Below, piece by piece: positions 5,016-49,383 of a stretch of DNA of 64,000 bases. The DNA is from Lytechinus pictus (lineage: Eukaryota), in NCBI RefSeq assembly GCF_037042905.1, contig NC_087250.1, positions 25,298,001-25,362,000 on the forward strand, read 5' to 3'. The notes beneath the pieces are model-generated. The model saw only the letters and a program-made list of their open reading frames with translations, searched no databases and had not been told where the DNA came from. The stretch's first letter is position 1; each line of letters begins with the position of its first letter. The position numbers were made by a program, and so were the translations under genes.

Positions 5016-5049
5016 TTAAATCTCTCTCTCGTGCATGACTCCCAAACAT

Positions 5050-25400: not shown

Positions 25401-28400
25401 AAAATTCATTTTGAGATTGTTAAAAAAAATGCCAGATTTTGAAAGACTTCATTTTTTGTTTGTATTTCTTTGCAGCATGCAGACTACTTTGGGTCCTTGA
25501 CTCAGGCATCAACACTAAACCTGGGATCTGGACCGGATGGGGATCTCAACATCCCATTCAAAGATATATTACCCATGGTGGACCCCAATGATATTGTCTT
25601 TGATGGTAAGTTTTAACTGTCATTACTTTGGAGCAATGTAGGAAATACACAAGGCAGACATTCCAACTGTTCCCTTTTGAAAGTATTTGTTCCTCTTTTT
25701 TGCTTTAAATACACCAATACTTTTTTTGTATGATTTGTTACTTAAAAAAAATAATTTCTGATTATGGAGTATATATGATACACAGCACGTGACACTTGTG
25801 CCAGTCCTACAGTCCCAGACCGGTAAAAATCACTGTCAGGCCAGTAACTTGTTGCATGAAAAGAACAAGTAAATTCTTGCCTACGAGCACATTTTTAAAA
25901 GGGTGAATTATCAAGTTTTCAAGTGGAGTCATTTCACATGTTTTTTCATCGATCTCACTACATCAGGCTGGTGATTGTGACGTTGAGACAAGTTTTTAAA
26001 AATAGTATTTTTTTGTAAAAAAATAACTTTTTTTTCCTTATAAGAATACCGGTACTTATTTTGGTTGTAGAAGGTTGGCTGGTCTGACGAGGGCGACCAG
26101 CGATTTTGCCCTAATCGCCCCTTAAATTCCACAAAATGCATGTTGTGGGGCGAGTCTAGAGAGAATGGTTGCCCCAAATCTTGCATTCTCTCAAAAACAG
26201 TATAGATTATTTAGAAAATCAAATTCTGGAAAATTGGCAGAATAATTATATTTGCATTTACAGTGTACTTTATAATTGCTTATTACCCCTAAAAAGTCAC
26301 CCTTGAAATTAAAGAATAAGCCCCCCCCCCCCATCGGAAAAAAGATAGCCCCTAAAAATTATAATTATTTCCCACCTGTTGCCTGCTCTCGAGAATTTTC
26401 TCAAATAAAATGCTCTAGATCTATTTTACAGTGTAAGAAATAATAATGTTCATTCACAAGGGTTGCTTTATTATAGTATGTTTACAGATTGTAATGCTTT
26501 AGGACTCGTTGGCAGAATACTATATGATGATGGCTTTTTTAAATTTAATATTGACCTGACAAAATTGAAACAAAAACAAAGTCAGCTTGATAATGTGTCA
26601 TCTTTGAATGTGATCTTGAGAAAACTTTTAACCAAACTACCCCCTAAATTAAGATAATTAAAGATAATATTTAAATTGTAAACAATGCAGTAAAAAAAAC
26701 TTTTAAAAGTATATTTAGACTCTGGTCACTCATATTAGAAAAAATATTATTCACAAAAGAAATAGGGTCTGGCTGTGTTTACACATCTGCTATCAATAAC
26801 AAATCTACACGATTTAATGAATCGTGATGTGCAGATAGTTTGGTGTGTAAACACGACAAGTGTAAAGTAAATATAATGAGCCATGATAAAGGCAATTATG
26901 ATATCTTTGTTTGTTGTCTTCTGGTGTGAAGGTGATCTTCATGGCACTGTGAAGAATGGATTGTTTGTATAGTACAGTCGAACCCAAATTAGTGGCCGCC
27001 TTTCTATAGCAGCCACCTGCTTATAGTGACCACTAAAATTGCTTCCATGGAGGCAGATTGTGTGTACAGGAACATGCTGCCTATAGCAGCTGAAGGCCAC
27101 ATTCAGACCTGCTAACCAGTACGTTTTTGACGTATTTAGTACGTTTTTGCAACCAAACTACGGCAGTACATTTTTTCTTTAAAAAAATATGTTTTTGGAA
27201 GAAAAAAATTCGTAATTCATTGAGAAAAATCATCTCTATATGTCTCTATTTCATAAAACTTACACAAATATGGTTATTAGATCAATGTAATTTCAGGAAA
27301 CTTGCTTTTTTTTTCAACCATTTTGTTAAAACCAGGGTGAGATATACACATGTTTCAATGTTTTTTTTAACATCTGCAAGAGCAGTGCACATTGTAGCTT
27401 GCATACAGCTTGAGCGCCGTGATGAGCGAGTGCGCCACACATTTTATTATGAAATACACTTTTTTGGGAAAAATACAGGGTTTTTTTATCACAGAATACA
27501 ATTTTTCATTCCCAGAAGTTGGCAGGTCTGCACATTTTGTGTTTACCTTGGGTAGTCACTACAGATAGGTTTCACTAATTTTTTTTCAACGGAAGAAAAG
27601 TGAAGAAGTATTCCAACTAATTTCCAAGCAGGGTGCTCGGGGCGATTTTGCCCCCAAAATGCTGAAAAGAGCCCTGGGGCTGGGCCCGATTCATAAAGAG
27701 TCATAACTGTTGTAACTTTGCCATTATGGCAACTACAGGGCTCAGCAGCCAATCAAAATCAAGGTTGCCAACAGTTGCAAGTCCTTTATGTAGTAAGTGG
27801 TGAAAAGTAGCCCCCTGAAAAAAACAAAACATTTTTTTGCCTGTTTCCAAGAGAGATCTGAGTTGTGAAAATGTTATTCAATTGTAACAGAACAGACATC
27901 AACTGACACCACCTTCTAGATGTCTTATCCACCACTACTTCTCTGTCAGAATAACAAAATTTTAGCGACTCATGTAATTAAAGAGGAGAATCCGCCTTAT
28001 TGTAAGGGAATATTCACTCACAAAGCTGTTAATCTTCCTCCATGTATTTTACCTAAATAGAAATGATTCTCTTTCACTCTCTCTCTCTCTCCCTGTTTAG
28101 GTTGGGACATTTCTCGCCTCAATCTTGCCGAAGCCATGGAACGGGCCCAGGTCCTGGACTGGAGTCTGCAGGAACAACTCCGCCCACACATGGCGACCCT
28201 CAAGCCCCGCCCGTCCGTCTATATCCCCGACTTCATCGCAGCCAACCAAGAGGACCGCGCCGACAATGTCCTCTCCGGAACGAAGTCGGAGCTCGTCGAG
28301 AAGCTCCGTGCCGACATCCGTGACTTTAAACAGAAGGTTGATAAGGTGATAGTGCTATGGACCGCGAACACAGAGAGGTTCTGTGATGTTGGTGAAGGAC

Positions 28401-31400
28401 TGAACGTTACAGAGCACGCCCTCATGAGGTCAATAGAGACCAATGCTGCGGAGGTGTCGCCATCAACGCTATTTGCAGTAGCTTCAATATTAGAAGGGGT
28501 AAACAGGCCTTCAATTTTGATATTTTTAGGGCGAGGCTGCTTTTCCATTTAGGCATTTCTATACTTGTACAGCACAAATGTATTAGAAATAGAAGGGCAA
28601 AACAAATCCCGGAGGCCAATAAGAGAGGCATCAAAGTCGGTCAACGGGATATCTATGACAAGGGCCTTTAATGACCCTGATTTAACCCTAACTAAGCCAG
28701 GCTCTTTTGGTAGTTAAAGGGGAATCCAGCCTTGGTCATAAAATGTTGTGTTGGAAAGGAGATAAATAAATGAAACAGAATGGTGAAAGTTTGAAAGAAA
28801 TCGGACTAGCAATAAGAAAGTTATGGCTACTTTAAAATTGAGATCCTTCAGACTATGTATTTCAAATTGGCAACTGGGTAAGTAAATTATGACAAGGGGC
28901 AAGGACAACTTTCCCATAGGCCATGTACTTAATTATTAGGGATTTGTGATTTTCTCCTAAGTAACCATTCCCCTGGGGCAGTAATCTAAATATAACCCGA
29001 GTAGTATATTGTTTTATATCCTCATAAAAGAAAAAAATTATTTGAAGTAAAACTTTTGAAAAAAAAAATGACATCTTAGCCATTTTATGTATTGGAGTAC
29101 ATGGATGAATAGTCCTTGCCTTACATCACTATGACATCACATATGTGGCAAATTTGAAGTCTCCATTTGTATAGTGATTACCTATATTTACAACTTTTAA
29201 AAATTCATAAATTTCTTATTGTTTGTCCGATATTGTTCAAACTTTCACTTATCAACTTGTGTGATTTTTCTTTTTCCTCTACCAAAAAGTTTTTTTTTGG
29301 GTTGGATCCCTTTTAATAAAGCCTGGGAGGTGTCTCCCAGGCTAGCCTTATGATCTTGGCTGTCAAACGTGTAATCGTGCCGATAATTGGCTCGCATGTT
29401 GTCCTTGGCATTATCTGCAAAATTTCATTTTCGTTTTTTTGAAAAAAATTTGATTCCATTTATCATGCTATTCAAAAGGGATGAATCATAAAAACTTGGA
29501 TTCTTGTTGATATTGCTTATGTATCCTTCACGCTGCAGGTTGCATACATCAACGGCTCTCCACAGAACACCTTTGTACCGGGCGTCATTGAGATGGCAGA
29601 GAGACGAGGGGTGATGATTGGTGGAGACGACTTCAAGTCAGGACAGACCAAGATCAAATCTGTCCTGGTGGACTTTCTTGTTGGTGCAGGAATCAAGCCG
29701 GTGTCGATCGTCAGTTACAACCATCTTGGGAACAATGATGGCAAGAACTTATCAGCTCCTAAACAGTTCAGGTCAAAAGAGGCAAGTAAATAATATTAAG
29801 AATAACAGGCATTTGTACAGCGCCATCTATCTAGAAATTATCTTTTATTATTTCCATGCCTTAAACTTGAGCTACTTTCCAGCGTTCAGTGCAAAATCAA
29901 GGAATTAATCCTGCCCGGTACCCATTTACCTCACATGGGTGGAGTACAGTAAACCCATTGGCGATAACCCCCCCCCCCCCATTGAAAGACAAAATGCAGA
30001 ACTATTAGACCATAACGTCCCCACAAGAAACTCTACTTTTGTTAAATCTTGGAATAGCAACAGATGGCGAGAGTCCTTGATTGCATGAATCAGAACATTT
30101 CATTTTTTTCTCTTTCAGATTTCTAAATCGAATGTCGTCGATGACGTGGTGGCATCCAACCCTATCCTCTACCCGGACGGCAAGAAACCCGACCACTGTG
30201 TCGTCATCAAGTACGTCCCTTACGTTGCAGACAGCAAGAGGGCGCTAGACGAATACACCTCCGAGATCATGATGGGCGGTAGGAACACTATATCACTCCA
30301 CAATACCTGTGAAGATTCCCTCCTTGCCACCCCCATCATTTTGGACCTGGTTATTCTCACTGAGCTGTGCCAGAGAATAGAGTTCAAATCAGGTAAGTGT
30401 GACTGCAGAAGAGGTTTACGATACACCATGTGTGAAGTCCTGGAGGGGCTAAGACAAGAAAGGGGATAGAAATAGAGGTGAATTGGAAAGGCGAGAAAGT
30501 GGAGGTTTGAAAGTATAGTATTTTCTAAATGAATATAGTCCTTAAAATGACTGTAAACCAGAAGGAATGGAAAGTTGAGTAGTAGGCAGGCGTGAGTAAA
30601 AGTCTTGAGTAGGTGAGAGAAGGCTGGCTTTAGTCGGCGAATAGAGTAGTAGCAGGAGCAAGAGAGTAGACTCGACGTTTCGCGCAGGTTGACTTAACGT
30701 CTTCAGGAGTGTCAATTCAATATTTAGGAAGTCAGTTTTTAATCTTGTAAATCTTGAATCTTGAAAATTGCAAAGTATTATTTATTGGTAAATATGCACA
30801 TAAATATTTACCAGCAGCACATGCTGAAAGGGTTAATTTACAAATAATCATAAAGTACAATATACAGATATAACAAAAGCTTATATAGTAAAAGCTTATA
30901 TTTCTTTGTGGTCACAACATTTCACAAGTACAAATGTTTGCTTTATCAGCCAAATGAACATAGTTTTCCTTGATTTTGATTGGCTGAGAAGCACTGTTAC
31001 GATGGTAACTGTCAGATAAAACAGGACATGTCAAATAAAGCGCCCGACAAGTCCTTTCATGAAACGGTGCACAGTTTTTATTTGGCTTGCTGGTGTTTTT
31101 AGTTTTTGTTTTTTTTTCCAAATTTTTTCAAGTGATTGTGTCTATCAGGGAAGGGGGGGGGGTCATTTTTAGTTATATTTTCAAGGCATTGATTTATGAT
31201 TAACTTTCTTCTCTGTCCCCACACAGCTTGCCAAAGTGAATACCAACAATTCCACAGTGTACTTTCAATCTTGAGCTATTTATGTAAAGCACCCTTGGTT
31301 CCTAGTGGTACACCGCTCGTCAATGCTTTATTCAAACAGAGGGCTTGCATTGAAAACATTTTTAGGTAAGCAAAGCACCCTTGGTTCCTAGTGGTACACC

Positions 31401-34400
31401 GCTCGTCAATGCTTTATTCAAACAGAGGGCTTGCATTGAAAACATTTTTAGGTAAGCAAAGCACCATTGGTTCCTAGTGGTACACCGCTCGTCAATGCTT
31501 TATTCAAACAGAGGGCTTGCATTGAAAACATTTTTAGGTAAGCAAAGCACCCTTGGTTCCTAGTGGTACACCGCTCGTCAATGCTTTATTCAAACAGAGG
31601 GCTTGCATTGAAAACATTTTTAGGTAAGCAAAGCACCCTTGGTTCCTAGTGGTACACCGCTCGTCAATGCTTTATTCAAACAGAGGGCTTGCATTGAAAA
31701 CATTTTTAGGTAAGCAAAGCACCATTGGTTCCTAGTGGTACACCGCTCGTCAATGCTTTATTCAAACAGAGGGCTTGCATTGAAAACATTTTTAGGTAAG
31801 CAAAGCACCCTTGGTTCCTAGTGGTACACCGCTCGTCAATGCTTTATTCAAACAGAGGGCTTGCATTGAAAACATTTTTAGGTAAGCAAAGCACCCTTGG
31901 TTCCTAGTGGTACACCGCTCGTCAATGCTTTATTCAAACAGAGGGCTTGCATTGAAAACATTTTTAGGTAAGCAAAGCACCCTTGGTTCCTAGTGGTACA
32001 CCGCTCGTCAATGCTTTATTCAAACAGAGGGCTTGCATTGAAAACATTTTTAGGTAAGCAAAGCACCCTTGGTTCCTAGTGGTACACCGCTCGTCAATGC
32101 TTTATTCAAACAGAGGGCTTGCATTGAAAACATTTTTAGGTAAGCAAAGCACCCTTGGTTCCTAGTGGTACACCGCTCGTCAATGCTTTATTCAAACAGA
32201 GGGCTTGCATTGAAAACATTTTTAGGTAAGCAAAGCACCCTTGGTTCCTAGTGGTACACCGCTCGTCAATGCTTTATTCAAACAGAGGGCTTGCATTGAA
32301 AACATTTTTAGGTAAGCAAAGCACCCTTGGTTCCTAGTGGTACACCGCTCGTCAATGCTTTATTCAAACAGAGGGCTTGCATTGAAAACATTTTTAGGTA
32401 AGCAAAGCACCCTTGGTTCCTAGTGGTACACCGCTCGTCAATGCTTTATTCAAACAGAGGGCTTGCATTGAAAACATTTTTAGGTAAGCAAAGCACCCTT
32501 GGTTCCTAGTGGTACACCGCTCGTCAATGCTTTATTCAAACAGAGGGCTTGCATTGAAAACATTTTTAGGTAAGCAAAGCACCCTTGGTTCCTAGTGGTA
32601 CACCGCTCGTCAATGCTTTATTCAAACAGAGGGCTTGCATTGAAAACATTTTTAGGTAAGCAAAGCACCCTTGGTTCCTAGTGGTACACCGCTCGTCAAT
32701 GCTTTATTCAAACAGAGGGCTTGCATTGAAAACATTTTTAGGTAAGCAAAGCACCCTTGGTTCCTAGTGGTACACCGCTCGTCAATGCTTTATTCAAACA
32801 GAGGGCTTGCATTGAAAACATTTTTAGGTAAGCAAAGCACCCTTGGTTCCTAGTGGTACACCGCTCGTCAATGCTTTATTCAAACAGAGGGCTTGCATTG
32901 AAAACATTTTTAGGTAAGCAAAGCACCCTTGGTTCCTAGTGGTACACCGCTCGTCAATGCTTTATTCAAACAGAGGGCTTGCATTGAAAACATTTTTAGG
33001 TAAGCAAAGCACCCTTGGTTCCTAGTGGTACACCGCTCGTCAATGCTTTATTCAAACAGAGGGCTTGCATTGAAAACATTTTTAGGTAAGCAAAGCACCC
33101 TTGGTTCCTAGTGGTACACCGCTCGTCAATGCTTTATTCAAACAGAGGGCTTGCATTGAAAACATTTTTAGGTAAGCAAAGCACCCTTGGTTCCTAGTGG
33201 TACACCGCTCGTCAATGCTTTATTCAAACAGAGGGCTTGCATTGAAAACATTTTTAGGTAAGCAAAGCGCCCTTGGTTCCTAGTGGTACACCGCTCGTCA
33301 ATGCTTTATTCAAACAGAGGGCTTGCATTGAAAACATTTTTAGGTAAGCAAAGCACCCTTGGTTCCTAGTGGTACACCGCTCGTCAATGCTTTATTCAAA
33401 CAGAGGGCTTGCATTGAAAACATTTTTAGGTAAGCAAAGCACCCTTGGTTCCTAGTGGTACACCGCTCGTCAATGCTTTATTCAAACAGAGGGCTTGCAT
33501 TGAAAACATATTTAGGTAAGCAAAGCACCCTTGGTTCCTAGTGGTACACCGCTCGTCAATGCTTTATTCAAACAGAGGGCTTGCATTGAAAACATTTTTA
33601 GGTAAGCAAAGCACCCTTGGTTCCTAGTGGTACACCGCTCGTCAATGCTTTATTCAAACAGAGGGCTTGCATTGAAAACATTTTTAGGTAAGCAAAGCAC
33701 CCTTGGTTCCTAGTGGTACACCGCTCGTCAATGCTTTATTCAAACAGAGGGCTTGCATTGAAAACATTTTTAGGTAAGCAAAGCACCCTTGGTTCCTAGT
33801 GGTACACCGCTCGTCAATGCTTTATTCAAACAGAGGGCTTGCATTGAAAACATTTTTAGGTAAGCAAAGCACCCTTGGTTCCTAGTGGTACACCGCTCGT
33901 CAATGCTTTATTCAAACAGAGGGCTTGCATTGAAAACATTTTTAGGTAAGCAAAGCACCCTTGGTTCCTAGTGGTACACCGCTCGTCAATGCTTTATTCA
34001 AACAGAGGGCTTGCATTGAAAACATTTTTAGGTAAGCAAAGCACCCTTAGTTCCTAGTGGTACACCGCTCGTCAATGCTTTATTCAAACAGAGGGCTTGC
34101 ATTGAAAACATTTTTAGGTAAGCAAAGCACCCTTGGTTCCTAGTGGTACACCGCTCGTTAATGCTTTATTCAAACAGAGGGCTTGCATTGAAAACATTTT
34201 TAGGTAAGCAAAGCGCCCTTGGTTCCTAGTGGTACACCGCTCGTCAATGCTTTATTCAAACAGAGGGCTTGCATTGAAAACATTTTTAGGTAAGCAAAGC
34301 ACCCTTGGTTCCTAGTGGTACACCGCTCGTCAATGCTTTATTCAAACAGAGGGCTTGCATTGAAAACATTTTTAGGTAAGCAAAGCACCCTTGGTTCCTA

Positions 34401-37400
34401 GTGGTACACCGCTCGTCAATGCTTTATTCAAACAGAGGGCTTGCATTGAAAACATTTTTAGGTAAGCAAAGCACCCTTAGTTCCTCGTGGTACACCGCTC
34501 GTCAATGCTTTATTCAAACAGAGGGCTTGCATTGAAAACATTTTTAGGTAAGCAAAGCACCCTTGGTTCCTAGTGGTACACCGCTCGTCAATGCTTTATT
34601 CAAACAGAGGGCTTGCATTGAAAACATTTTTAGGTAAGCAAAGCGCCCTTAGTTCCTAGTGGTACACCGCTCGTCAATGCTTTATTCAAACAGAGGGCTT
34701 GCATTGAAAACATTTTTAGGTAAGCAAAGCACCCTTGGTTCCTAGTGGAACACCGCTCCTCAATGCTTTATTCAAACAGAGGGCTTGCATTGAAAACATT
34801 TTTAGGTAAGCAAAGCACCCTTGGTTCCTAGTGGTACACCGCTCGTCAATGCTTTATTCAAACAGAGGGCTTGCATTGAAAACATATTTAGGTAAGCAAA
34901 GCACCCTTAGTTCCTAAACGTACACCGCTCGTCAATGCTTTATTCAAACAGAGGGCTTGCATTGAAAACATTTTTAGGTAAGCAAAGCACCCTTGGTTCC
35001 TAGTGGTACACCACTCGTCAATGCTTTATTCAAACAGAGGGCTTGCATTGAAAACATTTTTAGGTAAGCAAAGCGCCCTTGGTTCCTAATGGTACACCGC
35101 TCGTCAATGCTTTATTCAAACAGAGGGCTTGCATTGAAAACATTTTTAGGTAAGCAAAGCACCCTTAGTTCCTAAACGTACACCGCTCGTCAATGCTTTA
35201 TTCAAACAGAGGGCTTGCATTGAAAACATTTTTAGGTAAGCAAAGCACCCTTAGTTCCTAAACGTACACCACTCGTCAATGCTTCATTCAAACAGAGGGC
35301 TTGCATTGAAAATATTTTTAGGTGAGCAAAGCACCCTTAGTTCCTAGTGGTACACCGCTCGTCAATGCTTCATTCAAACAGAGGGCTTGCATTGAAAACA
35401 TTTTTAGGTAAGCAAAGCACCCTTAGTTCCTAGTGGTACACCGCTCGTCAATGCTTTATTCAAACAGAGGGCTTGCATTGAAAACATTTTTAGGTAAGCA
35501 AAGCACCCTTAGTTCCTAGTGGTACACCGCTCGTCAATGCTTTATTCAAACAGAGGGCTTGCATTGAAAACATTTTTAGGTAAGCAAAGCACCCTTAGTT
35601 CCTAGTGGTACACCGCTCGTCAATGCTTTATTCAAACAGAGGGCTTGCATTGAAAACATTTTTAGGTAAGCAAAGCACCCTTAGTTCCTAGTGGTACACC
35701 GCTCGTCAATGCTTTATTCAAACAGAGGGCTTGCATTGAAAACATTTTTAGGTAAGCAAAGCACCCTTAGTTCCTAAACGTACACCACTCGTCAATGCTT
35801 CATTCAAACAGAGGGCTTGCATTGAAAATAATTTTAGGTAAGCAAAGCACCCTTAGTTCCTAAACGTACACCGCTCGTCAATGCTTCATTCAAACAGAGG
35901 GCTTGCATTGAAAACATTTTTAGGTAAGCAAAGCACCCTTAGTTCCTAGTGGTACACCGCTCGTCAATGCTTCATTCAAACAGAGGGCTTGCATTGAAAA
36001 CATTTTTAGGTAAGCAAAGCACCCTTAGTTCTTAGTGGTACACCGCTCGTCAATGCTTTATTCAAACAGAGGGCTTGCATTGAAAACATTTTTAGGTAAG
36101 CAAAGCACCCTTAGTTCCTAGTGGTACACCGCTCGTCAATGCTTTATTCAAACAGAGGGCTTGCATTGAAAACATTTTTAGGTAAGCAAAGCACCCTTAG
36201 TTCCTAGTGGTACACCGCTCGTCAATGCTTTATTCAAACAGAGGGCTTGCATTGAAAACATTTTTAGCTAAGCAAAGCACCCTTAGTTCCTAGTGGTACA
36301 CCGCTCGTCAATGCTTTATTCAAACAGAGGGCTTGCATTGAAAACATTTTTAGGTAAGCAAAGCACCCTTAGTTCCTAAACGTACACCACTCGTCAATGC
36401 TTCATTCAAACAGGGGGCTTGCATTGAAAATAATTTTAGGTAAGCAAAGCACCCTTAGTTCCTAAACGTACACCACTCGTCAATGCTTCATTCAAACAGA
36501 GGGCTTGCATTGAAAATAGTTTTAGGTAAGCAAAGCACCCTTAGTTCCTAGTGGTACACCGCTCGTCAATGCTTTATTCAAACAGAGGGCTTGCATTGAA
36601 AACATTTTTAGGTAAGCAAAGCGCCCTTAGTTCCTAAACGTACACCACTCGTCAATGCTTCATTCAAACAGAGGGCTTGCATTGAAAATAATTTTAGGTA
36701 AGCAAAGCACCCTTAGTTCCTAGTGGTACACCGCTCGTCAATGCTTTATTCAAACAGAGGGCTTGCATTGAAAACATTTTTAGGTAAGCAAAGCACCCTT
36801 AGTTCCTAGTGGTACACCGCTCGTCAATGCTTTATTCAAACAGAGGGCTTGCATTGAAAACATTTTTAGGTAAGCAAAGCACCCTTAGTTCCTAGTGGTA
36901 CACCGCTCGTCAATGCTTTATTCAAACAGAGGGCTTGCATTGAAAACATTTTTAGGTAAGCAAAGCACCCTTAGTTCCTAAACGTACACCACTCGTCAAT
37001 GCTTCATTCAAACAGAGGGCTTGCATTGAAAACATTTTTAGGTAAGCAAAGCACCCTTAGTTCCTAGTGGTACACCGCTCGTCAATGCTTTATTCAAACA
37101 GAGGGCTTGCATTGAAAACATTTTTAGGTAAGCAAAGCGCCCTTAGTTCCTAAACGTACACCGCTCGTCAATGCTTTATTCAAACAGAGGGCTTGCATTG
37201 AAAACATTTTTAGGTAAGCAAAGCGCCCTTAGTTCCTAAACGTACACCGCTCGTCAATGCTTTATTCAAACAGAGGGCTTGCATTGAAAACATTTTTAGG
37301 TAAGCAAAGCGCCCTTAGTTCCTAAACGTACACCGCTCGTCAATGCTTTATTCAAACAGAGGGCTTGCATTGAAAACATTTTTAGGTAAGCAAAGCGCCC

Positions 37401-40400
37401 TTAGTTCCTAAACGTACACCGCTCGTCAATGCTTTATTCAAACAGAGGGCTTGCATTGAAAACATTTTTAGGTAAGCAAAGCGCCCTTAGTTCCTAAACG
37501 TACACCACTCGTCAATGCTTTATTCAAACAGAGGGCTTGCATTGAAAATATTTTTAGGTAAGCAAAGCACCCTTTGTTCCTAAACGTACACCACTTGTCA
37601 ATGCTTTATTCAAACAGAGGGCTTGCATTGAAAACATTTTTAGGTAAGCAAAGCACCCTTAGTTCCTAAACGTACACCACTCGTCAATGCTTCATTCAAA
37701 CAGAGGGCTTGCATTGAAAACATTTTTAGGTAAGCAAAGCACCCTTGGTTCCTAGTGGTACACCACTCGTCAATGCTTTATTCAAACAGAGGGCTTGCAT
37801 TGAAAACATTTTTAGGTAAGCAAAGCGCCCTTGGTTCCTAATGGTACACCGCTCGTCAATGCTTTATTCAAACAGAGGGCTTGCATTGAAAACATTTTTA
37901 GGTAAGCAAAGCACCCTTAGTTCCTAAACGTACACCGCTCGTCAATGCTTTATTCAAACAGAGGGCTTGCATTGAAAACATTTTTAGGTAAGCAAAGCAC
38001 CCTTAGTTCCTAAACGTACACCACTCGTCAATGCTTCATTCAAACAGAGGGCTTGCATTGAAAATATTTTTAGGTAAGCAAAGCACCCTTAGTTCCTAGT
38101 GGTACACCGCTCGTCAATGCTTCATTCAAACAGAGGGCTTGCATTGAAAACATTTTTAGGTAAGCAAAGCACCCTTGGTTCCTAGTGGTACACCACTCGT
38201 CAATGCTTTATTCAAACAGAGGGCTTGCATTGAAAACATTTTTAGGTAAGCAAAGCGCCCTTGGTTCCTAATGGTACACCGCTCGTCAATGCTTTATTCA
38301 AACAGAGGGCTTGCATTGAAAACATTTTTAGGTAAGCAAAGCACCCTTAGTTCCTAAACGTACACCGCTCGTCAATGCTTTATTCAAACAGAGGGCTTGC
38401 ATTGAAAACATTTTTAGGTAAGCAAAGCACCCTTAGTTCCTAAACGTACACCACTCGTCAATGCTTCATTCAAACAGAGGGCTTGCATTGAAAATATTTT
38501 TAGGTAAGCAAAGCACCCTTAGTTCCTAGTGGTACACCGCTCGTCAATGCTTCATTCAAACAGAGGGCTTGCATTGAAAACATTTTTAGGTAAGCAAAGC
38601 ACCCTTAGTTCCTAGTGGTACACCGCTCGTCAATGCTTTATTCAAACAGAGGGCTTGCATTGAAAACATTTTTAGGTAAGCAAAGCACCCTTAGTTCCTA
38701 GTGGTACACCGCTCGTCAATGCTTTATTCAAACAGAGGGCTTGCATTGAAAACATTTTTAGGTAAGCAAAGCACCCTTAGTTCCTAGTGGTACACCGCTC
38801 GTCAATGCTTTATTCAAACAGAGGGCTTGCATTGAAAACATTTTTAGGTAAGCAAAGCACCCTTAGTTCCTAGTGGTACACCGCTCGTCAATGCTTTATT
38901 CAAACAGAGGGCTTGCATTGAAAACATTTTTAGGTAAGCAAAGCACCCTTAGTTCCTAAACGTACACCACTCGTCAATGCTTCATTCAAACAGAGGGCTT
39001 GCATTGAAAATAATTTTAGGTAAGCAAAGCACCCTTAGTTCCTAAACGTACACCGCTCGTCAATGCTTCATTCAAACAGAGGGCTTGCATTGAAAACATT
39101 TTTAGGTAAGCAAAGCACCCTTAGTTCCTAGTGGTACACCGCTCGTCAATGCTTCATTCAAACAGAGGGCTTGCATTGAAAACATTTTTAGGTAAGCAAA
39201 GAACCCTTAGTTCCTAGTGGTACACCGCTCGTCAATGCTTTATTCAAACAGAGGGCTTGCATTGAAAACATTTTTAGGTAAGCAAAGCACCCTTAGTTCC
39301 TAGTGGTACACCGCTCGTCAATGCTTTATTCAAACAGAGGGCTTGCATTGAAAACATTTTTAGGTAAGCAAAGCACCCTTAGTTCCTAGTGGTACACCGC
39401 TCGTCAATGCTTTATTCAAACAGAGGGCTTGCATTGAAAACATTTTTAGGTAAGCAAAGCACCCTTAGTTCCTAGTGGTACACCGCTCGTCAATGCTTTA
39501 TTCAAACAGAGGGCTTGCATTGAAAACATTTTTAGGTAAGCAAAACACCCTTAGTTCCTAAACGTACACCACTCGTCAATGCTTCATTCAAACAGGGGGC
39601 TTGCATTGAAAATAATTTTAGGTAAGCAAAGCACCCTTAGTTCCTAAACGTACACCACTCGTCAATGCTTCATTCAAACAGAGGGCTTGCATTGAAAATA
39701 ATTTTAGGTAAGCAAAGCACCCTTAGTTCCTAGTGGTACACCGCTCGTCAATGCTTTATTCAAACAGAGGGCTTGCATTGAAAACATTTTTAGGTAAGCA
39801 AAGCGCCCTTAGTTCCTAAACGTACACCACTCGTCAATGCTTCATTCAAACAGAGGGCTTGCATTGAAAATAATTTTAGGTAAGCAAAGCACCCTTAGTT
39901 CCTAGTGGTACACCGCTCGTCAATGCTTTATTCAAACAGAGGGCTTGCATTGAAAACATTTTTAGGTAAGCAAAGCACCCTTAGTTCCTAGTGGTACACC
40001 GCTCGTCAATGCTTTATTCAAACAGAGGGCTTGCATTGAAAACATTTTTAGGTAAGCAAAGCACCCTTAGTTCCTAGTGGTACACCGCTCGTCAATGCTT
40101 TATTCAAACAGAGGGCTTGCATTGAAAACATTTTTAGGTAAGCAAAGCGCCCTTAGTTCCTAAACGTACACCGCTCGTCAATGCTTTATTCAAACAGAGG
40201 GCTTGCATTGAAAACATTTTTAGGTAAGCAAAGCGCCCTTAGTTCCTAAACGTACACCGCTCGTCAATGCTTTATTCAAACAGAGGGCTTGCATTGAAAA
40301 CATTTTTAGGTAAGCAAAGCGCCCTTAGTTCCTAAACGTACACCGCTCGTCAATGCTTTATTCAAACAGAGGGCTTGCATTGAAAACATTTTTAGGTAAG

Positions 40401-43400
40401 CAAAGCGCCCTTAGTTCCTAAACGTACACCGCTCGTCAATGCTTTATTCAAACAGAGGGCTTGCATTGAAAACATTTTTAGGTAAGCAAAGCGCCCTTAG
40501 TTCCTAAACGTACACCGCTCGTCAATGCTTTATTCAAACAGAGGGCTTGCATTGAAAACATTTTTAGGTAAGCAAAGCGCCCTTAGTTCCTAAACGTACA
40601 CCACTCGTCAATGCTTTATTCAAACAGAGGGCTTGCATTGAAAATATTTTTAGGTAAGCAAAGCACCCTTTGTTCCTAAACGTACACCACTTGTTAATGC
40701 TTTATTCAAACAGAGGGCTTGCATTGAAAACATTTTTAGGTAAGCAAAGCACCCTTAGTTCCTAAACGTACACCACTCGTCAATGCTTCATTCAAACAGA
40801 GGGCTTGCATTGAAAACATTTTTAGGTAAGCAAAGCACCCTTGGTTCCTAGTGGTACACCACTCGTCAATGCTTTATTCAAACAGAGGGCTTGCATTGAA
40901 AACATTTTTAGGTAAGCAAAGCGCCCTTGGTTCCTAATGGTACACCGCTCGTCAATGCTTTATTCAAACAGAGGGCTTGCATTGAAAACATTTTTAGGTA
41001 AGCAAAGCACCCTTAGTTCCTAAACGTACACCGCTCGTCAATGCTTTATTCAAACAGAGGGCTTGCATTGAAAACATTTTTAGGTAAGCAAAGCACCCTT
41101 AGTTCCTAAACGTACACCACTCGTCAATGCTTCATTCAAACAGAGGGCTTGCATTGAAAATATTTTTAGGTAAGCAAAGCACCCTTAGTTCCTAGTGGTA
41201 CACCGCTCGTCAATGCTTCATTCAAACAGAGGGCTTGCATTGAAAACATTTTTAGGTAAGCAAAGCACCCTTAGTTCCTAGTGGTACACCGCTCGTCAAT
41301 GCTTTATTCAAACAGAGGGCTTGCATTGAAAACATTTTTAGGTAAGCAAAGCACCCTTAGTTCCTAGTGGTACACCGCTCGTCAATGCTTTATTCAAACA
41401 GAGGGCTTGCATTGAAAACATTTTTAGGTAAGCAAAGCACCCTTAGTTCCTAGTGGTACACCGCTCGTCAATGCTTTATTCAAACAGAGGGCTTGCATTG
41501 AAAACATTTTTAGGTAAGCAAAGCACCCTTAGTTCCTAGTGGTACACCGCTCGTCAATGCTTTATTCAAACAGAGGGCTTGCATTGAAAACATTTTTAGG
41601 TAAGCAAAGCACCCTTAGTTCCTAGTGGTACACCGCTCGTCAATGCTTTATTCAAACAGAGGGCTTGCATTGAAAACATTTTTAGGTAAGCAAAACACCC
41701 TTAGTTCCTAAACGTACACCACTCGTCAATGCTTCATTCAAACAGGGGGCTTGCATTGAAAATAATTTTAGGTAAGCAAAGCACCCTTAGTTCCTAAACG
41801 TACACCACTCGTCAATGCTTCATTCAAACAGAGGGCTTGCATTGAAAATAATTTTAGGTAAGCAAAGCACCCTTAGTTCCTAGTGGTACACCGCTCGTCA
41901 ATGCTTTATTCAAACAGAGGGCTTGCATTGAAAACATTTTTAGGTAAGCAAAGCGCCCTTAGTTCCTAAACGTACACCACTCGTCAATGCTTCATTCAAA
42001 CAGAGGGCTTGCATTGAAAATAATTTTAGGTAAGCAAAGCACCCTTAGTTCCTAGTGGTACACCGCTCGTCAATGCTTTATTCAAACAGAGGGCTTGCAT
42101 TGAAAACATTTTTAGGTAAGCAAAGCACCCTTAGTTCCTAGTGGTACACCGCTCGTCAATGCTTTATTCAAACAGAGGGCTTGCATTGAAAACATTTTTA
42201 GGTAAGCAAAGCACCCTTAGTTCCTAGTGGTACACCGCTCGTCAATGCTTTATTCAAACAGAGGGCTTGCATTGAAAACATTTTTAGGTAAGCAAAGCGC
42301 CCTTAGTTCCTAAACGTACACCGCTCGTCAATGCTTTATTCAAACAGAGGGCTTGCATTGAAAACATTTTTAGGTAAGCAAAGCGCCCTTAGTTCCTAAA
42401 CGTACACCGCTCGTCAATGCTTTATTCAAACAGAGGGCTTGCATTGAAAACATTTTTAGGTAAGCAAAGCGCCCTTAGTTCCTAAACGTACACCGCTCGT
42501 CAATGCTTTATTCAAACAGAGGGCTTGCATTGAAAACATTTTTAGGTAAGCAAAGCGCCCTTAGTTCCTAAACGTACACCGCTCGTCAATGCTTTATTCA
42601 AACAGAGGGCTTGCATTGAAAACATTTTTAGGTAAGCAAAGCGCCCTTAGTTCCTAAACGTACACCGCTCGTCAATGCTTTATTCAAACAGAGGGCTTGC
42701 ATTGAAAACATTTTTAGGTAAGCAAAGCGCCCTTAGTTCCTAAACGTACACCACTCGTCAATGCTTTATTCAAACAGAGGGCTTGCATTGAAAATATTTT
42801 TAGGTAAGCAAAGCACCCTTTGTTCCTAAACGTACACCACTTGTTAATGCTTTATTCAAACAGAGGGCTTGCATTGAAAACATTTTTAGGTAAGCAAAGC
42901 ACCCTTAGTTCCTAAACGTACACCACTCGTCAATGCTTCATTCAAACAGAGGGCTTGCATTGAAAACATTTTTAGGTAAGCAAAGCACCCTTGGTTCCTA
43001 GTGGTACACCACTCGTCAATGCTTTATTCAAACAGAGGGCTTGCATTGAAAACATTTTTAGGTAAGCAAAGCGCCCTTGGTTCCTAATGGTACACCGCTC
43101 GTCAATGCTTTATTCAAACAGAGGGCTTGCATTGAAAACATTTTTAGGTAAGCAAAGCACCCTTAGTTCCTAAACGTACACCGCTCGTCAATGCTTTATT
43201 CAAACAGAGGGCTTGCATTGAAAACATTTTTAGGTAAGCAAAGCACCCTTAGTTCCTAAACGTACACCACTCGTCAATGCTTCATTCAAACAGAGGGCTT
43301 GCATTGAAAATATTTTTAGGTAAGCAAAGCACCCTTAGTTCCTAGTGGTACACCGCTCGTCAATGCTTCATTCAAACAGAGGGCTTGCATTGAAAACATT

Positions 43401-46400
43401 TTTAGGTAAGCAAAGCACCCTTAGTTCCTAGTGGTACACCGCTCGTCAATGCTTTATTCAAACAGAGGGCTTGCATTGAAAACATTTTTAGGTAAGCAAA
43501 GCACCCTTAGTTCCTAGTGGTACACCGCTCGTCAATGCTTTATTCAAACAGAGGGCTTGCATTGAAAACATTTTTAGGTAAGCAAAGCACCCTTAGTTCC
43601 TAGTGGTACACCGCTCGTCAATGCTTTATTCAAACAGAGGGCTTGCATTGAAAACATTTTTAGGTAAGCAAAGCACCCTTAGTTCCTAGTGGTACACCGC
43701 TCGTCAATGCTTTATTCAAACAGAGGGCTTGCATTGAAAACATTTTTAGGTAAGCAAAGCACCCTTAGTTCCTAAACGTACACCACTCGTCAATGCTTCA
43801 TTCAAACAGAGGGCTTGCATTGAAAATAATTTTAGGTAAGCAAAGCACCCTTAGTTCCTAAACGTACACCGCTCGTCAATGCTTCATTCAAACAGAGGGC
43901 TTGCATTGAAAACATTTTTAGGTAAGCAAAGCACCCTTAGTTCCTAGTGGTACACCGCTCGTCAATGCTTCATTCAAACAGAGGGCTTGCATTGAAAACA
44001 TTTTTAGGTAAGCAAAGCACCCTTAGTTCCTAGTGGTACACCGCTCGTCAATGCTTTATTCAAACAGAGGGCTTGCATTGAAAACATTTTTAGGTAAGCA
44101 AAGCACCCTTAGTTCCTAGTGGTACACCGCTCGTCAATGCTTTATTCAAACAGAGGGCTTGCATTGAAAACATTTTTAGGTAAGCAAAGCACCCTTAGTT
44201 CCTAGTGGTACACCGCTCGTCAATGCTTTATTCAAACAGAGGGCTTGCATTGAAAACATTTTTAGGTAAGCAAAGCACCCTTAGTTCCTAGTGGTACACC
44301 GCTCGTCAATGCTTTATTCAAACAGAGGGCTTGCATTGAAAACATTTTTAGGTAAGCAAAGCACCCTTAGTTCCTAAACGTACACCACTCGTCAATGCTT
44401 CATTCAAACAGAGGGCTTGCATTGAAAACATTTTTAGGTAAGCAAAGCACCCTTAGTTCCTAGTGGTACACCGCTCGTCAATGCTTTATTCAAACAGAGG
44501 GCTTGCATTGAAAACATTTTTAGGTAAGCAAAGCACCCTTAGTTCCTAAACGTACACCACTCGTCAATGCTTCATTCAAACAGAGGGCTTGCATTGAAAA
44601 TAATTTTAGGTAAGCAAAGCACCCTTAGTTCCTAAACGTACACCGCTCGTCAATGCTTCATTCAAACAGAGGGCTTGCATTGAAAACATTTTTAGGTAAG
44701 CAAAGCACCCTTAGTTCCTAGTGGTACACCGCTCGTCAATGCTTCATTCAAACAGAGGGCTTGCATTGAAAACATTTTTAGGTAAGCAAAGCACCCTTAG
44801 TTCCTAGTGGTACACCGCTCGTCAATGCTTTATTCAAACAGAGGGCTTGCATTGAAAACATTTTTAGGTAAGCAAAGCACCCTTAGTTCCTAGTGGTACA
44901 CCGCTCGTCAATGCTTTATTCAAACAGAGGGCTTGCATTGAAAACATTTTTAGGTAAGCAAAGCACCCTTAGTTCCTAGTGGTACACCGCTCGTCAATGC
45001 TTTATTCAAACAGAGGGCTTGCATTGAAAACATTTTTAGGTAAGCAAAGCACCCTTAGTTCCTAGTGGTACACCGCTCGTCAATGCTTTATTCAAACAGA
45101 GGGCTTGCATTGAAAACATTTTTAGGTAAGCAAAGCACCCTTAGTTCCTAAACGTACACCACTCGTCAATGCTTCATTCAAACAGAGGGCTTGCATTGAA
45201 AACATTTTTAGGTAAGCAAAGCACCCTTAGTTCCTAGTGGTACACCGCTCGTCAATGCTTTATTCAAACAGAGGGCTTGCATTGAAAACATTTTTAGGTA
45301 AGCAAAGCGCCCTTAGTTCCTAAACGTACACCGCTCGTCAATGCTTTATTCAAACAGAGGGCTTGCATTGAAAACATTTTTAGGTAAGCAAAGCGCCCTT
45401 AGTTCCTAAACGTACACCGCTCGTCAATGCTTTATTCAAACAGAGGGCTTGCATTGAAAACATTTTTAGGTAAGCAAAGCGCCCTTAGTTCCTAAACGTA
45501 CACCGCTCGTCAATGCTTTATTCAAACAGAGGGCTTGCATTGAAAACATTTTTAGGTAAGCAAAGCGCCCTTAGTTCCTAAACGTACACCGCTCGTCAAT
45601 GCTTTATTCAAACAGAGGGCTTGCATTGAAAACATTTTTAGGTAAGCAAAGCGCCCTTAGTTCCTAAACGTACACCGCTCGTCAATGCTTTATTCAAACA
45701 GAGGGCTTGCATTGAAAACATTTTTAGGTAAGCAAAGCGCCCTTAGTTCCTAAACGTACACCACTCGTCAATGCTTTATTCAAACAGAGGGCTTGCATTG
45801 AAAATATTTTTAGGTAAGCAAAGCACCCTTTGTTCCTAAACGTACACCACTTGTCAATGCTTTATTCAAACAGAGGGCTTGCATTGAACACATTTTTAGG
45901 TAAGCAAAGCACCCTTAGTTCCTAAACGTACACCACTCGTCAATGCTTCATTCAAACAGAGGGCTTGCATTGAAAATTATTTTAGGTAAGCAAAGCACCC
46001 TTAGTTCCTAAACGTACACCACTCGTCAATGCTTTATTCAAACAGAGGGCTTGCATTGAAAACATTTTTAGGTAAGCAAAGCACCCTTTGTTCCTAAACG
46101 TACACCACTTGTCAATGCTTTATTCAAACAGAGGGCTTGCATTGAAAATATTTTTAGGTAAGCAAAGCACCCTTTGTTCCTAAACGTACACCACTCGCCA
46201 ATGCTTCATTCAAACAGAGGGCTTGCATTGAAAACATTTTTAGGTAAGCAAAGCACCCTTAGTTCCTAAACGTACACCGCTCGTTAATGCTTTATTCAAA
46301 CAGAGGGCTTGCATTGAAAACATTTTTAGGTAAGCAAAGCGCCCTTAGTTCCTAAACGTACACCACTCGTCAATGCTTCATTCAAACAGAGGTCTTGCAT

Positions 46401-49383
46401 TGAAAACATATTCAGGTCTGCATTTAACCCTAAAAGGACTGGGCTATTTGAAATGTATTGAGGACTGAGGGGGATAGGCCATGAGGGCCCCCTTCTGATC
46501 TCGGCCACCATTTGCGCGATGCGCCAAAATTTGGCATGCACATTCTTTACCACATTAACTACGGTAAGAAAAAAAATTCTGGAAATAATTTTTTAAATGT
46601 ATTATGAATAAAATATGAATATTTATTTGTGAAAAACAACATTTGCATACTTAAGGCCTAATTTCAGATTTTCATTTTTTCCCTGATGTCATCTTTGCAA
46701 TCTTATTTAAAGGTTTCCATAAAGCCAAATTTTTCCTCGTGTATTTCTTTGTTTTTAGAATTTCTTATGCATTTCTGTGTTTTTTATGTTTTTTTTTCCA
46801 TTGGAATTTATTTTAAGCCATTTTGCAACTAAATGAATTAAGCGAACCAATTGAAATGAAAAATAATCACCCTTTTGATGAATTTCAACTCCCATAGAAT
46901 ATGTTCACTGAGTATTAAAATGAGCCGTTTTCGGCATGACATTGTCTTGTAAAAGTTATGATTGATCCAATAAATCGTAACTATGGAAATCCATCAGTGT
47001 CATATTTATTTCTACATAAAATTTTCAAAATGTCCTTTGTAAACAAAGGCGAACACACCAAATTGTCAAGAAAACAATGAATTTATGTAATTTACGTCAT
47101 ATCTAGAATTTTTTTTGAACATTTGTACATTTAAGATGCTGACATTGCTGGCCGACCATAGTTATGATTGATGGGATCAATCGCAACTCTTTGTAAGACG
47201 GGTCCCAGAAATATAGCTCGAAGCGTGGGGGGGGGGCTTCCCCCTACAACCACTTTCTGTTTGGTGTCATCCCCCAGTGTCTAATCTTAGTTCATATAGT
47301 TTGTCTTCTAACCATTTGGTGAAATAGTCCATTTACCACAACAATGTAGTGGATATGATTAGATGATCTGTTAATGAACCAAATTTTATTTGACTTAATT
47401 CCAATGTAATAAGTAGACGTAATGGAAATTAAGTGATCTTGGCAGCAGTAGACTAAGTGATGTTTGGACCAAGTGAACTTACATGTGGACATAGAGGTGT
47501 TAAGACTATCTGAGAATTAGACTACTGGGGCGGTATTCTGAAAACCGTGTTAGCACAAAAACGGTGTTAGCTAACACGATTGGTATTCTGAAAATTGTGT
47601 TAGCATAAAAACACGTGGCCCAAGTGGTAACACCGCGCATGGTCATGAAATGCGCAGTGCGCAACGCGCAACCCCATACGCGGTGTTAGGGAGGAAGATA
47701 ACACGAAATTTGGTATTCTGAAAATGGTGTTAGCTAAAATTTGGTTCTAAGATAACACGAACATTTAACACTGCGCTAAGGAGGGGTTAAGTTGGAAATG
47801 ACGATGGCTGTACTTTTCTGGCAGACACAAACGTCAATAAAAGAACATATATAGGGGCATAGCTATTGTCTGGCAGCACTTCCTGGAAGATTCTTTCATT
47901 TTCCAGCTTTATTTTCCATCTTACCTTTCTCTCTACAAACAATGATCAAACAGCAATTTCTTCGGAACTTCCTGTGAAAATGCACTTCAAATGCATCTTT
48001 AATTTTGATTAATTTAAATTGTTATCATAATCATGAGTTATTTATTTGGTTCCCTTTTGCCACAATAACGTTTTAAAAAAGAGGACAAAAAAGAGAGGAA
48101 GAATATTAAAACCGTCTAAAAAGCCCAAACAGCAATTAAAAAGAATGGATTAGGGATTTGGGAACTCTTCTCTAGCTAATGACAAAATTTTTACCCCTTT
48201 TCAATAGTTATAGTTCCAATGATCAAAATTTTCAACTCTCAATGCTACTAGATTATCCCGCCAGTCAATCTATATGTTTCGGATGGCGGGGGGGCAAAAG
48301 TGAAAAAAAAATATTGAGGGGGGGCTGATCACTCTACGTATTAAATCATAATAATAAAAAAAATGCGTGCGGAGCGCACCGAAAAATTACAATTTTTAAG
48401 GTTTGATAATATTTCTATGTCAGGTTCAATTTTTCTTAAACTGCTTTTCATGCTTTAAAAAAATTTGCATTGCATATTTATTTTTTAAAGTTTTCAAAAT
48501 AATTGGGGGACATAATATAGATTAACTGTGCTCCCTCTTATTTGGGGGATAATCGTCTATATACTGCCCCCTCCACCATGTCCACAATCGATCGAGGCGT
48601 CTGTCTCCCGTTTTCGTACCCATATGCTGTCTGAAATAATATATTCTTAATTGCCACTAACCCCTCCCCACGTCCCTTTCTAGCTCTAACTTTTATTTAG
48701 CTGTATGCGCTGACATAATGATGTCACAATGCAGGCTTTGTGTCACCGCGCACGCACTCTTTTCCCTAAAAATTCTGCACGATCTTTCCTTTATAACAGT
48801 GCATTTGATTGGATTAAATAGATGCAGAGTGGGAGGAGCTGAAATGAGATAACACGCAGATAACACGGTTTTCAGAATACCGATCTGGGGGTATGTTAGG
48901 GGCGTGTTAAATTAGAGAGATAACACGATATTTAACACGAAAGTTAACACGATTTTCAGAATACCGCCCCTGGTTATTAGACAAAGTGGCTATGCAGCTT
49001 TCCCATCTGGATAAAACAGTTCATTTCATTTTGACCATCTTTTGTTTGTTAAAGCACCTTGTCTCCCGTTTCTGATATTTTCTATTTATCTTTCACACAG
49101 GGCTTGTATTGGACTTCCTCCACAGAATAACATGCTACTGGAACACAAGCTTAGCAATCCAAAGTCCATCCCAGAACTCTGCACCAATGGCCTCTCCTCA
49201 GAACTGTGCACCAATGGCCTCTCCTCAGAACTGTACATCAATGGCCTTACAAACGGCCACGCCCTGCAGAATGGCAGCCTTGTCATAGAGCCTGAACCGA
49301 TCAGCAAGAAAGCAAAAGTCGCAACGTCCGAGTTCGTCAACGGCAACGGTGTTCTGCACAATGGTATGGCAGCGATTCATTAA
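22310..49383 (+). CDS. ISYNA1: Inositol-3-phosphate synthase (myo-inositol-1-phosphate synthase), whole-gene span; join(22310..22420,24861..25022,25476..25605,28101..28498,29539..29781,30119..30392,31227..31365,49101..49383), 579 aa
   Basis: The spliced translation contains the MIPS hallmark motifs [54 protein letters not shown] and KAPLVP. Exon phases are mutually consistent (0,0,1,0,0,1,2) and the exons total 1740 nt. Confidence 0.97.
23076..23533. mobile_element. TIR element in intron 1
   Basis: TIR CAGTAGAGGCGCACGGCCAATAT, flanked by the 5-bp direct repeat TAGAC; internal GGAGACTGTCTCC-type palindromes. Confidence 0.8.
24861..25022 (+). CDS. ISYNA1: ISYNA1 exon 2 (VKPIDV...[14 protein letters not shown]...KEGIR)
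   Basis: ttttcag acceptor, GTAAGA donor, NAD-binding GWGGNNG motif. Confidence 0.97.
25046..25440. mobile_element. Kolobok-like family C element filling most of intron 2
   Basis: Reverse complement of ~10740-11145; starts after TTAA. Confidence 0.7.
25476..25605 (+). CDS. ISYNA1: ISYNA1 exon 3 ([13 protein letters not shown]...[13 protein letters not shown])
   Basis: tttgcag acceptor, GTAAGT donor; not in the ORF track but translates to conserved MIPS sequence. Confidence 0.96.
28101..28498 (+). CDS. ISYNA1: ISYNA1 exon 4 ([17 protein letters not shown]...LWTANTERF...ASILEG)
   Basis: Pyrimidine tract plus tttag acceptor, GTAAAC donor, conserved motif LWTANTERF. Confidence 0.97.
28718..29312. 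mobile_element. TTAA-flanked element in intron 4 (Kolobok-like)
   Basis: TTAA|AGGGGAATCCAGCC...GGTTGGATCCCTT|TTAA. Confidence 0.7.
29539..29781 (+). CDS. ISYNA1: ISYNA1 exon 5 ([15 protein letters not shown]...[10 protein letters not shown]...FRSKE), GC donor
   Basis: ctgcag acceptor; only the donor GAG|GCAAGT restores the conserved SKE|ISKS junction in frame. Confidence 0.95.
29787..29950 (-). mobile_element. 5'-truncated SINE in intron 5
   Basis: Reverse complement of the central segment (GTAAATGGGTACC) and tail (CTAGATAGATGG...AAATGCC) of the SINE at 6718-7005. Confidence 0.7.
30119..30392 (+). CDS. ISYNA1: ISYNA1 exon 6 (ISKSNVVDD...CEDSLLA...RIEFKS)
   Basis: tctttcag acceptor, GTAAGT donor, conserved motifs. 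Confidence 0.97.
30670..30710 (-). ncRNA. Degenerate minimal type I hammerhead ribozyme (Penelope-like element remnant, ~30530-30710)
   Basis: The minus strand reads ACTC-CTGAAGA-C-(stem II, imperfect)-GAAA-CGTC-GAGT: both core boxes, a 4-bp helix I and a palindromic ACGT helix III. Confidence 0.55.
31227..31365 (+). CDS. ISYNA1: ISYNA1 exon 7 ([46 protein letters not shown]); its 3' 80 nt belong to unit 1 of the array
   Basis: acacag acceptor, GTAAGC donor at 31366; conserved SYL.KAPLVP...NAL..QR motif. Confidence 0.96.
31286..46421 (+). repeat. Tandem array of 176 x 86-bp units derived from the ISYNA1 exon 7 3' end plus 5' splice site
   Basis: Unit AAAGCACCCTTGGTTCCTAGTGGTACACCGCTCGTCAATGCTTTATTCAAACAGAGGGCTTGCATTGAAAACATTTTTAGGTAAGC. 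The first and last exon-end AGs (31365, 46415) are exactly 175 x 86 apart, so there is no net indel. Confidence 0.98.
47528..48969. mobile_element. PIF/Harbinger-like non-autonomous element in intron 7
   Basis: TIR GGGCGGTATTCTGAAAA, 3-bp TSD CTG, subterminal GGTATTCTGAAAA/TAACACG repeats. Confidence 0.85.
49101..49383 (+). CDS. ISYNA1: ISYNA1 terminal exon 8 ([17 protein letters not shown] plus low-complexity NG-rich tail)
   Basis: tttcacacag acceptor in phase 2, matching exon 7; RAC.GL.P.N.M.LE is the conserved MIPS C-terminus; TAA at 49381-49383. Confidence 0.93.
49172..49247 (+). repeat. Coding 27-bp tandem repeat x ~3 (ELCTNGLSS) in exon 8
   Basis: CAGAACT(C/G)TGCACCAATGGCCTCTCCT is repeated in frame. 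Confidence 0.9.

Follow-up and report, generated by a model that had tools for sequence, protein, structure and literature searches.

How does a gene keep closing an exon at the right place when its 5′ splice site, together with the 80 nt of exon that precede it, has been reiterated along most of the intron that follows? The question is raised by a locus in the sea urchin Lytechinus pictus, within a window of 64,000 nt (the whole stretch of DNA that was analyzed: assembly GCF_037042905.1, contig NC_087250.1, positions 25,298,001 to 25,362,000, forward strand; the positions below are those of the window). Here, the end of exon 7 of the gene for inositol-3-phosphate synthase (MIPS, ISYNA1-like) and its donor form the unit of an 86-bp tandem array of 176 monomers inside intron 7. 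It is likely, in our view, that this array is a boundary-spanning minisatellite carried as an intronic passenger and that the most upstream donor pairs with the exon 8 acceptor. The locus can thus be regarded as a natural test of positional 5′ splice-site choice, whether by a "first site wins" rule or by exon definition. The test is a clean one because only its position behind the exon 7 acceptor distinguishes the real donor, and each pseudo-donor has 80 nt of true exon context and strong complementarity to U1. Moreover, the host of the array is a single-copy metabolic gene that looks essential, and the sea urchin serves as a laboratory model.

The host gene was described by an eight-exon MIPS model that was built from splice signals. 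Its parts are as follows, with slashes marking splice sites.

22310..49383, plus strand: MIPS (inositol-3-phosphate synthase, ISYNA1-like) coding region, eight coding exons, from Pfam matches and splice signals
22310..22420, plus strand: MIPS coding exon 1
24861..25022, plus strand: MIPS coding exon 2
25476..25605, plus strand: MIPS coding exon 3
28101..28498, plus strand: MIPS coding exon 4
29539..29781, plus strand: MIPS coding exon 5
30119..30392, plus strand: MIPS coding exon 6
31227..31365, plus strand: MIPS exon 7, 139 nt, acceptor tcttctctgtccccacacag/CTT and donor TAG/GTAAGC
49101..49383, plus strand: MIPS exon 8, last of the coding exons and with the stop codon, starting with G followed by GCT TGT ATT after cacacag

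The spliced coding sequence of 1,740 nt reads without a break to 579 aa, and the exon translations match both Pfam PF07994 (NAD_binding_5) and PF01658 (Inos-1-P_synth) with E-values of 4e-52 to 1e-11. Exon 7 supplies profile positions 276-321 of 321 in PF07994, i.e., the last 46 positions. The 579-aa model is letter-for-letter the same as the NCBI protein inositol-3-phosphate synthase 1-A-like [Lytechinus pictus] (P0001), and the peptide that spans the exon 7-8 junction is conserved in all 12 orthologues inspected, a set that includes L. variegatus, Diadema, sea stars, sea cucumbers, a brittle star, a crinoid, and transcript-derived proteins. An earlier reading made from the sequence alone had named the gene ISYNA1/MIPS and had described an intact frame on both sides of the array; the two Pfam families and the unbroken eight-exon frame bear out both statements.

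Two features of the gene model should be noted in their own right. Intron 5 (29782-30118) is an apparent GC-AG intron with the donor GAG/GCAAGT, which is the sole in-frame reading and agrees with the NCBI protein. Exon 8 contains a coding tandem repeat at 49172-49247 (27 bp x 2.8 copies by Tandem Repeats Finder, TRF) that encodes ELCTNGLSS repeats. In L. variegatus, the protein lacks one ELCTNGLSS unit and is shorter by 9 aa, and therefore the C-terminal tail of MIPS is itself a small coding variable number tandem repeat. Protein fragments of 51-163 aa with exon 8 were looked for, and none was found.

The array begins inside exon 7. TRF reported one array at 31286-46417 with a period of 86, 176.0 copies, 97% matches, 0% indels, and a score of 27135, and all 176 units are in register when the sequence is cut each 86 bp from 31286. 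Beyond 46421, the 86-mers deviate from the consensus at 64-68 of their 86 positions, and the array was therefore taken to end there. The features of intron 7 are as follows.

31286..46421, plus strand: minisatellite, 86 bp x 176 monomers, 15,136 bp, 36 distinct monomer sequences
31366..31371, plus strand: authentic intron 7 donor GTAAGC, with an in-frame TAA at 31367-31369 directly after AGG
35322..35327, plus strand: variant pseudo-donor GTGAGC, unit 47
36268..36273, plus strand: inactivated pseudo-donor CTAAGC, unit 58
46416..46421, plus strand: degenerate pseudo-donor GTCTGC, last unit
46422..49100, plus strand: non-repeated rest of intron 7, 2,679 nt, with the acceptor tctatttatctttcacacag at its end

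Monomer 1 (31286-31371) straddles the boundary between exon 7 and intron 7, as it consists of the final 80 nt of exon 7 (31286-31365, with the terminal AG) and the first six nucleotides of the intron, GTAAGC (31366-31371). Intron 7 covers 31366-49100 (17,735 nt), and the array accounts for 84.9% of it. A unit-by-unit listing of the donors showed the 9-mer TAGGTAAGC in 173 of the 176 units. The other three units each have a 9-mer of their own: unit 47 has TAGGTGAGC, unit 58 has TAGCTAAGC with a G>C change at 36268, and the last unit has CAGGTCTGC. GT(A/G)AG is therefore kept in 174 of 176 units, which is to say that the 5′ splice site itself is reiterated. The array holds no long open reading frame (stop-free stretches reach at most 51 aa on the plus strand and 45 aa on the minus strand), and no poly(A) signal was found in it. 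The sequence-only reading had proposed exactly this composition, with an 86-bp unit that joins GTAAGC to the 80 nt at the end of exon 7, 176 copies with no net indel, a share of about 85% of a 17.7-kb intron, and CT at 36268 and GTCTGC in the last unit as the only donor exceptions. TRF, the 86-bp cutting, and the donor listing agree with it on each of these points. Its anatomy of the exon end required one correction, in that the unit and the donor stand but exon 7 ends at 31365 and not at 31366.

To place the array in the genome, 811.7 Mb in 368 contigs were searched with a 56-nt monomer-junction pattern (≤3 mismatches), which gave 171 forward and 0 reverse matches. All 171 are those inside the window array. 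A dispersed satellite DNA family is ruled out by this result, and because 171 of 171 matches lie within the one array, it is a single-locus minisatellite. Exon 4 of MIPS has one occurrence in the genome, and the gene that hosts the minisatellite is the sole MIPS gene.

What, then, could tell the spliceosome which donor is the real one? The 5′ end of this genome's own U1 small nuclear RNA (snRNA) is canonical (AUACUUACCUG). UAG/GUAAGC forms 7 contiguous Watson-Crick pairs with it (-2 to +5), and for this reason the intron 7 donor is regarded as strong. After the authentic donor follow 173 further intact GT(A/G)AG donors. Local context offers no basis for a choice, as the 80 nt upstream and all of the downstream sequence are alike at every donor, and donor selection would therefore have to be positional. 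The real donor is set apart solely by the sequence beyond these 80 nt, where the unique 59 nt of exon 7 and the strong exon 7 acceptor are found. Masking of the donors by RNA structure was considered and rejected, as the RNA of three units folds no better than shuffled sequences (z = 0.09). The locus had been put forward as a natural experiment in donor selection, and with 173 intact donors behind the authentic one, it can indeed serve as such.

The U1 snRNA genes themselves form a tandem cluster at G000:C2:31961190-32010256 with a spacing of ∼1,405 bp; at least 35 copies lie on contig C2 among 42 scored matches.

Our current hypothesis for the origin and the handling of the array is as follows. 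[quoted passage not shown] The coding sequence would be untouched, since the real exon end is monomer 1 itself and the 175 monomers that follow are intronic. The spliceosome would join the most upstream donor to the acceptor of exon 8 over a distance of 17.7 kb, and the remaining 173 intact donors would leave with the intron. Only the upstream donor would close exon 7 directly behind exon 7's own strong acceptor, and its selection by position may proceed by exon definition or by a 5′-to-3′ "first site wins" mechanism, as demonstrated for human F7 (Borensztajn et al. 2006, PLoS Genet 2:e138, PMC1557585). If a later donor were used, the protein would be cut short, because reading through the donor gives AGG-TAA in frame, and such a message would presumably be a target of nonsense-mediated decay (NMD) and be cleared.

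To follow the RNA of this gene, we used raw rRNA-depleted L. pictus runs X21 and X22 (of three found), of which ∼6% each was read. The reads were placed on 30000-31371, which comprises exon 6, intron 6, exon 7, and monomer 1 only. Coverage was strand-specific, with first mates on the minus strand only over exons. Depth over exon 6 was ∼20-37 while the unique bins of intron 6 had a depth of 0, and the exon 6-to-7 joint was crossed by 31 and 20 reads (X21 and X22, respectively) and by one contig. Among assembled data, the contig runs that match the locus hold about the exonic share of the query words, 0.34. MIPS is an expressed, intact, single-copy gene.

The depth over exon 7 bears on donor choice. 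The unique part of exon 7 had a depth of 36.5/27.5, as compared to 29.3/26.4 and 24.1/18.3 over the unit part (X21/X22). With every one of the 175 extra monomers at 1% of the mRNA level, a unit depth of ∼2.75x would be expected, and no excess was observed. Because depth is no greater over the unit part of exon 7 than over the unique part, the mature RNA appears to be without extra units; by our own rough arithmetic, each extra unit is present at less than ∼0.2% of the mRNA level. Reads that overhang the ends of 30000-31371 number only 21 and 18 (X21 and X22), and they lie at the 3′ end because the first bins have a depth of 0. Their number is close to the count at the exon 6-to-7 joint, which fits a continuation into exon 8. 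The sequence-only reading had spoken of ∼175 competing donors. The 173 intact extra donors are present, while the absence of excess unit depth suggests that the first donor wins the competition.

The unit has a further possible 3′ splice site. An AG at monomer positions 19-20 (31304-31305 in monomer 1) follows the moderately pyrimidine-rich CCCTTGGTTCCTAG, and from the sequence it would define, with the unit's own donor, an in-frame, stop-free pseudo-exon of 60 nt and an insert of 20 aa per unit. The 67 AAACGT monomers are without an AG at these positions, and no sign of its use was seen in the RNA depth over 30000-31371 in X21/X22.

The lack of excess unit coverage in mature RNA is also predicted by a different mechanism, a ratchet or self-healing mode of splicing. 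Here, whichever donor is used, its joining to the AG at the end of a later monomer would restore the end of exon 7, and the array would be removed stepwise, or the product of a later donor would be spliced again, so that the decoys would be harmless. The juxtaposed 3′/5′ splice-site logic that this demands, TTTTTAG/GTAAGC, holds for 173 of 176 monomers. The monomer-end AG is, however, a poor acceptor. Its tract has pyrimidines at 10/18 positions, and at 4/10 from -14 to -5, as compared to 12-17/18 and 8-10/10 in the seven real MIPS acceptors, and the monomer-end AG is preceded by two further AGs, at monomer positions 53 and 55. Furthermore, the go-back joint from 31371 to 31286 was not seen among the 15 joints listed, and use of the first donor alone accounts for the data with no need for a ratchet. 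Stepwise removal or repeated splicing of the array is, on balance, very unlikely. If it did occur, the locus would act as a natural ratchet of 175 steps and would report very sensitively on 5′ splice-site choice. Recursive splice sites are ratchet points of long introns at which the donor is regenerated after splicing. The MIPS array resembles them in the AG/GTAAG juxtaposed at each monomer end and differs from them in the weakness of the monomer-end tract (10/18 vs 12-17/18), and it was not assigned to this class.

Several observations weigh against exclusive use of the most upstream donor, or against the array length on which that interpretation depends. The exon 7-to-8 junction is absent from the loose ends listed, among which the intron 6 repeats dominate. 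Contig run X1 shows a summed word depth that increases over the unit, from 20 to 106-116, and a transcript contig of 1,005 nt from this run stops at 31315, 30 nt into the unit, which is the branching point expected of a k=31 graph. The X1 library therefore holds some array-containing RNA, either pre-mRNA or products of later donors. An older L. pictus model in NCBI nr (P0032, 366 aa) is without exon 4 and ends in ...ENIFR, which corresponds to the TAA inside the first donor. Read-through transcripts could account for this stop, and so could a poorer assembly; the model shows how such an array can mislead annotation, which should serve as a warning to annotators. Lastly, the copy number of 176 is the count in the assembly.

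This last point leads to the possibility that the array length is wrong in the assembly, either expanded or collapsed, or that the whole array is an artefact. Assembly errors are well known to arise in tandem arrays, and the older model P0032 broke exactly at the first donor of this one. On the other hand, 36 ordered monomer types, a gradient of divergence, duplications of multi-unit blocks, and 0 indels in 15 kb are unlike assembler stutter. The independent X1 RNA contigs break at the monomer start with a 5-6x word depth over the unit, and because of both, the unit must have more than one left-hand context in data independent of the assembly. An assembly error of this kind is hence improbable. 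Least probable among the alternatives is a regulatory array whose copy number, as the sequence-only reading had suggested, would tune MIPS expression, e.g., by way of a U1 small nuclear ribonucleoprotein sink (∼174 sites), nuclear retention, intron delay, or NMD-coupled leakage: 174 strong U1-complementary sites on one pre-mRNA and 30 exon-identical units that point to ongoing copy-number change speak for it, but the monomers drift freely with 31 distinct changes and loss of the donor in 2 units, the array RNA has no special fold, and other ordinary minisatellites in the window, with periods of 84-133 bp, show that tandem amplification is common in the region.

A boundary-spanning minisatellite that is removed with its intron by use of the first donor has precedents. 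Borensztajn et al. 2006 (PMC1557585) list several human genes in which the first monomer of a minisatellite spans an exon-intron boundary and the donor is reiterated in the intron. F7 carries 37 bp x 5-9 and uses the first donor only. LMNB2 (100 bp x 10-15) and PDGF intron 4 (81 bp x 16-18) are likewise reported to use the authentic donor only. IFI6 (6-16) intron 2 has 25 pseudo-sites, of which the first two are used constitutively along with the authentic site, and CBS intron 13, with 15-20 repeats, uses the authentic site and two pseudo-sites. Mutagenesis of F7 showed that its pseudo-sites are functional and that the most upstream functional site always wins, for which the authors use the term oriented 5′-to-3′ scanning, and exon skipping in F7 increased with the distance of the site used.

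The MIPS array belongs, by its structure, to the F7 IVS7-type class. As in F7, the first monomer lies on the boundary (exon 7-intron 7 in MIPS), identical pseudo-donors follow downstream, and the gene is functional. The two differ in that the F7 monomer has 4 exonic nt and a weak donor (UGG/gugggu), whereas the MIPS monomer has 80 exonic nt and a strong donor; unlike in F7, the MIPS monomers copy any exonic enhancers along with the donor. Use of the first donor was established by mutagenesis in F7, whereas in MIPS it is suggested by RNA depth. PDGF and LMNB2 share with MIPS a similar monomer size and the reiteration of an intronic donor, but they are vertebrate genes with about ten times fewer copies. 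IFI6 and CBS share the reiterated donor, but they use two pseudo-sites, whereas in MIPS a later donor brings an in-frame TAA and the RNA is without extra unit coverage. As far as the depth data go, the MIPS array behaves like those of F7, LMNB2, and PDGF. With 176 monomers vs 5 to 26 copies of the donor in the human genes of PMC1557585, it is ∼7 times larger. Full-text literature searches, in which subscription papers are under-covered, returned no larger boundary-spanning donor array. The proposal of an unusual satellite birth from an exon-intron junction is therefore sound in its anatomy and overstated otherwise, since the array occupies a single locus and human precedents are on record in the same source. 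The kind is already known from human genes, and what makes the MIPS case unusual is its size and the 80 nt of exon context at each donor.

Variation among the monomers gives an account of how the array grew. Three blocks can be distinguished.

31286..34467, plus strand: exon-proximal homogeneous block, units 1-37, mean difference of 0.2% from the exon copy
39203..43774, plus strand: re-duplicated 25-unit higher-order block, in which 2,422 bp from 39203 are identical 2,150 bp further on
45304..46421, plus strand: distal, most diverged block, units 164-176, mean difference of 7.5% from the exon copy

Divergence from the exon copy increases with distance, from 0.2% in units 1-37 through ∼4% in the middle to 7.5% in units 164-176; in the last unit, 12 of 86 positions are changed. 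Thirty units across the whole array are identical to the exon copy, and the order of the monomers shows re-duplicated multi-unit blocks. Taken together, the 36 monomer types in repeated blocks, the 2,422-bp identity at a 25-unit lag, and the divergence gradient are the reason why growth by unequal exchange with a recent burst beside the exon fits the array. Recent turnover is also suggested by the 30 exon-identical monomers and the block duplications.

The changes themselves indicate the absence of coding constraint. Thirty-one distinct changes are scattered along the unit, with the donor lost in 2 units. The most frequent protein-level variant replaces the exon AGTGGT (S-G) by AAACGT (K-R), which is found in 67 units of the array, including 13/13 of the distal block; other non-synonymous variants change L to S and I to N. 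K-R was looked for in the orthologues and found in 0/12. Because the variants are non-synonymous and K-R is in none of the 12 orthologues, the intronic monomers are without coding constraint. Distal monomers might preserve, as a fossil allele, older states of the exon. N-G (AATGGT), present in 5 units, agrees with L. variegatus and Asterias, but all 5 units belong to one re-duplicated block type. K-R was rejected as a fossil exon state, and it must have arisen within the array, because 0/12 orthologues carry it and G is near-universal at the second codon.

The age of the array can be gauged against a close relative, organism B, whose DNA contigs (X9) show 17 differences from the locus in 408 nt around exon 6 (∼4%). 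As compared to this value, the divergence of the distal monomers (mean 7.5%, up to 14%) hints at an old origin, although the numbers are small. The contigs of organism B have no coverage on exon 7, a gap that is uninformative about the presence of the array.

Two further observations were made in exon 6 and intron 6. At exon 6 sites 30130, 30139, 30226, and 30352, about half of the X21/X22 RNA reads carry an alternative base, and the alternative bases are those of the organism B contig. The four sites are shared or ancestral polymorphisms of which both alleles are expressed. Intron 6 contains dispersed repeats at 30460-30735 and 30965-31066 with very high depth on both strands in organism A RNA and in organism B DNA contigs. 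Their summed word depth reaches up to ∼220,000, and the consensus of the loose ends has a palindrome-like TTGTCAGATCTGACAAC; the repeats are probably an abundant transcribed small transposon.

Elsewhere in the window, none of the 11 flanking open reading frames has a Pfam match, and the window has 0 Rfam matches. Three other minisatellites are present, at 2408-3747 (131 bp x 10.2), 5039-6675 (133 bp x 12.2), and 61616-62292 (84 bp x 8), the first of which sits in a stretch with a GC content of 0.29 and a GC skew of +0.56.

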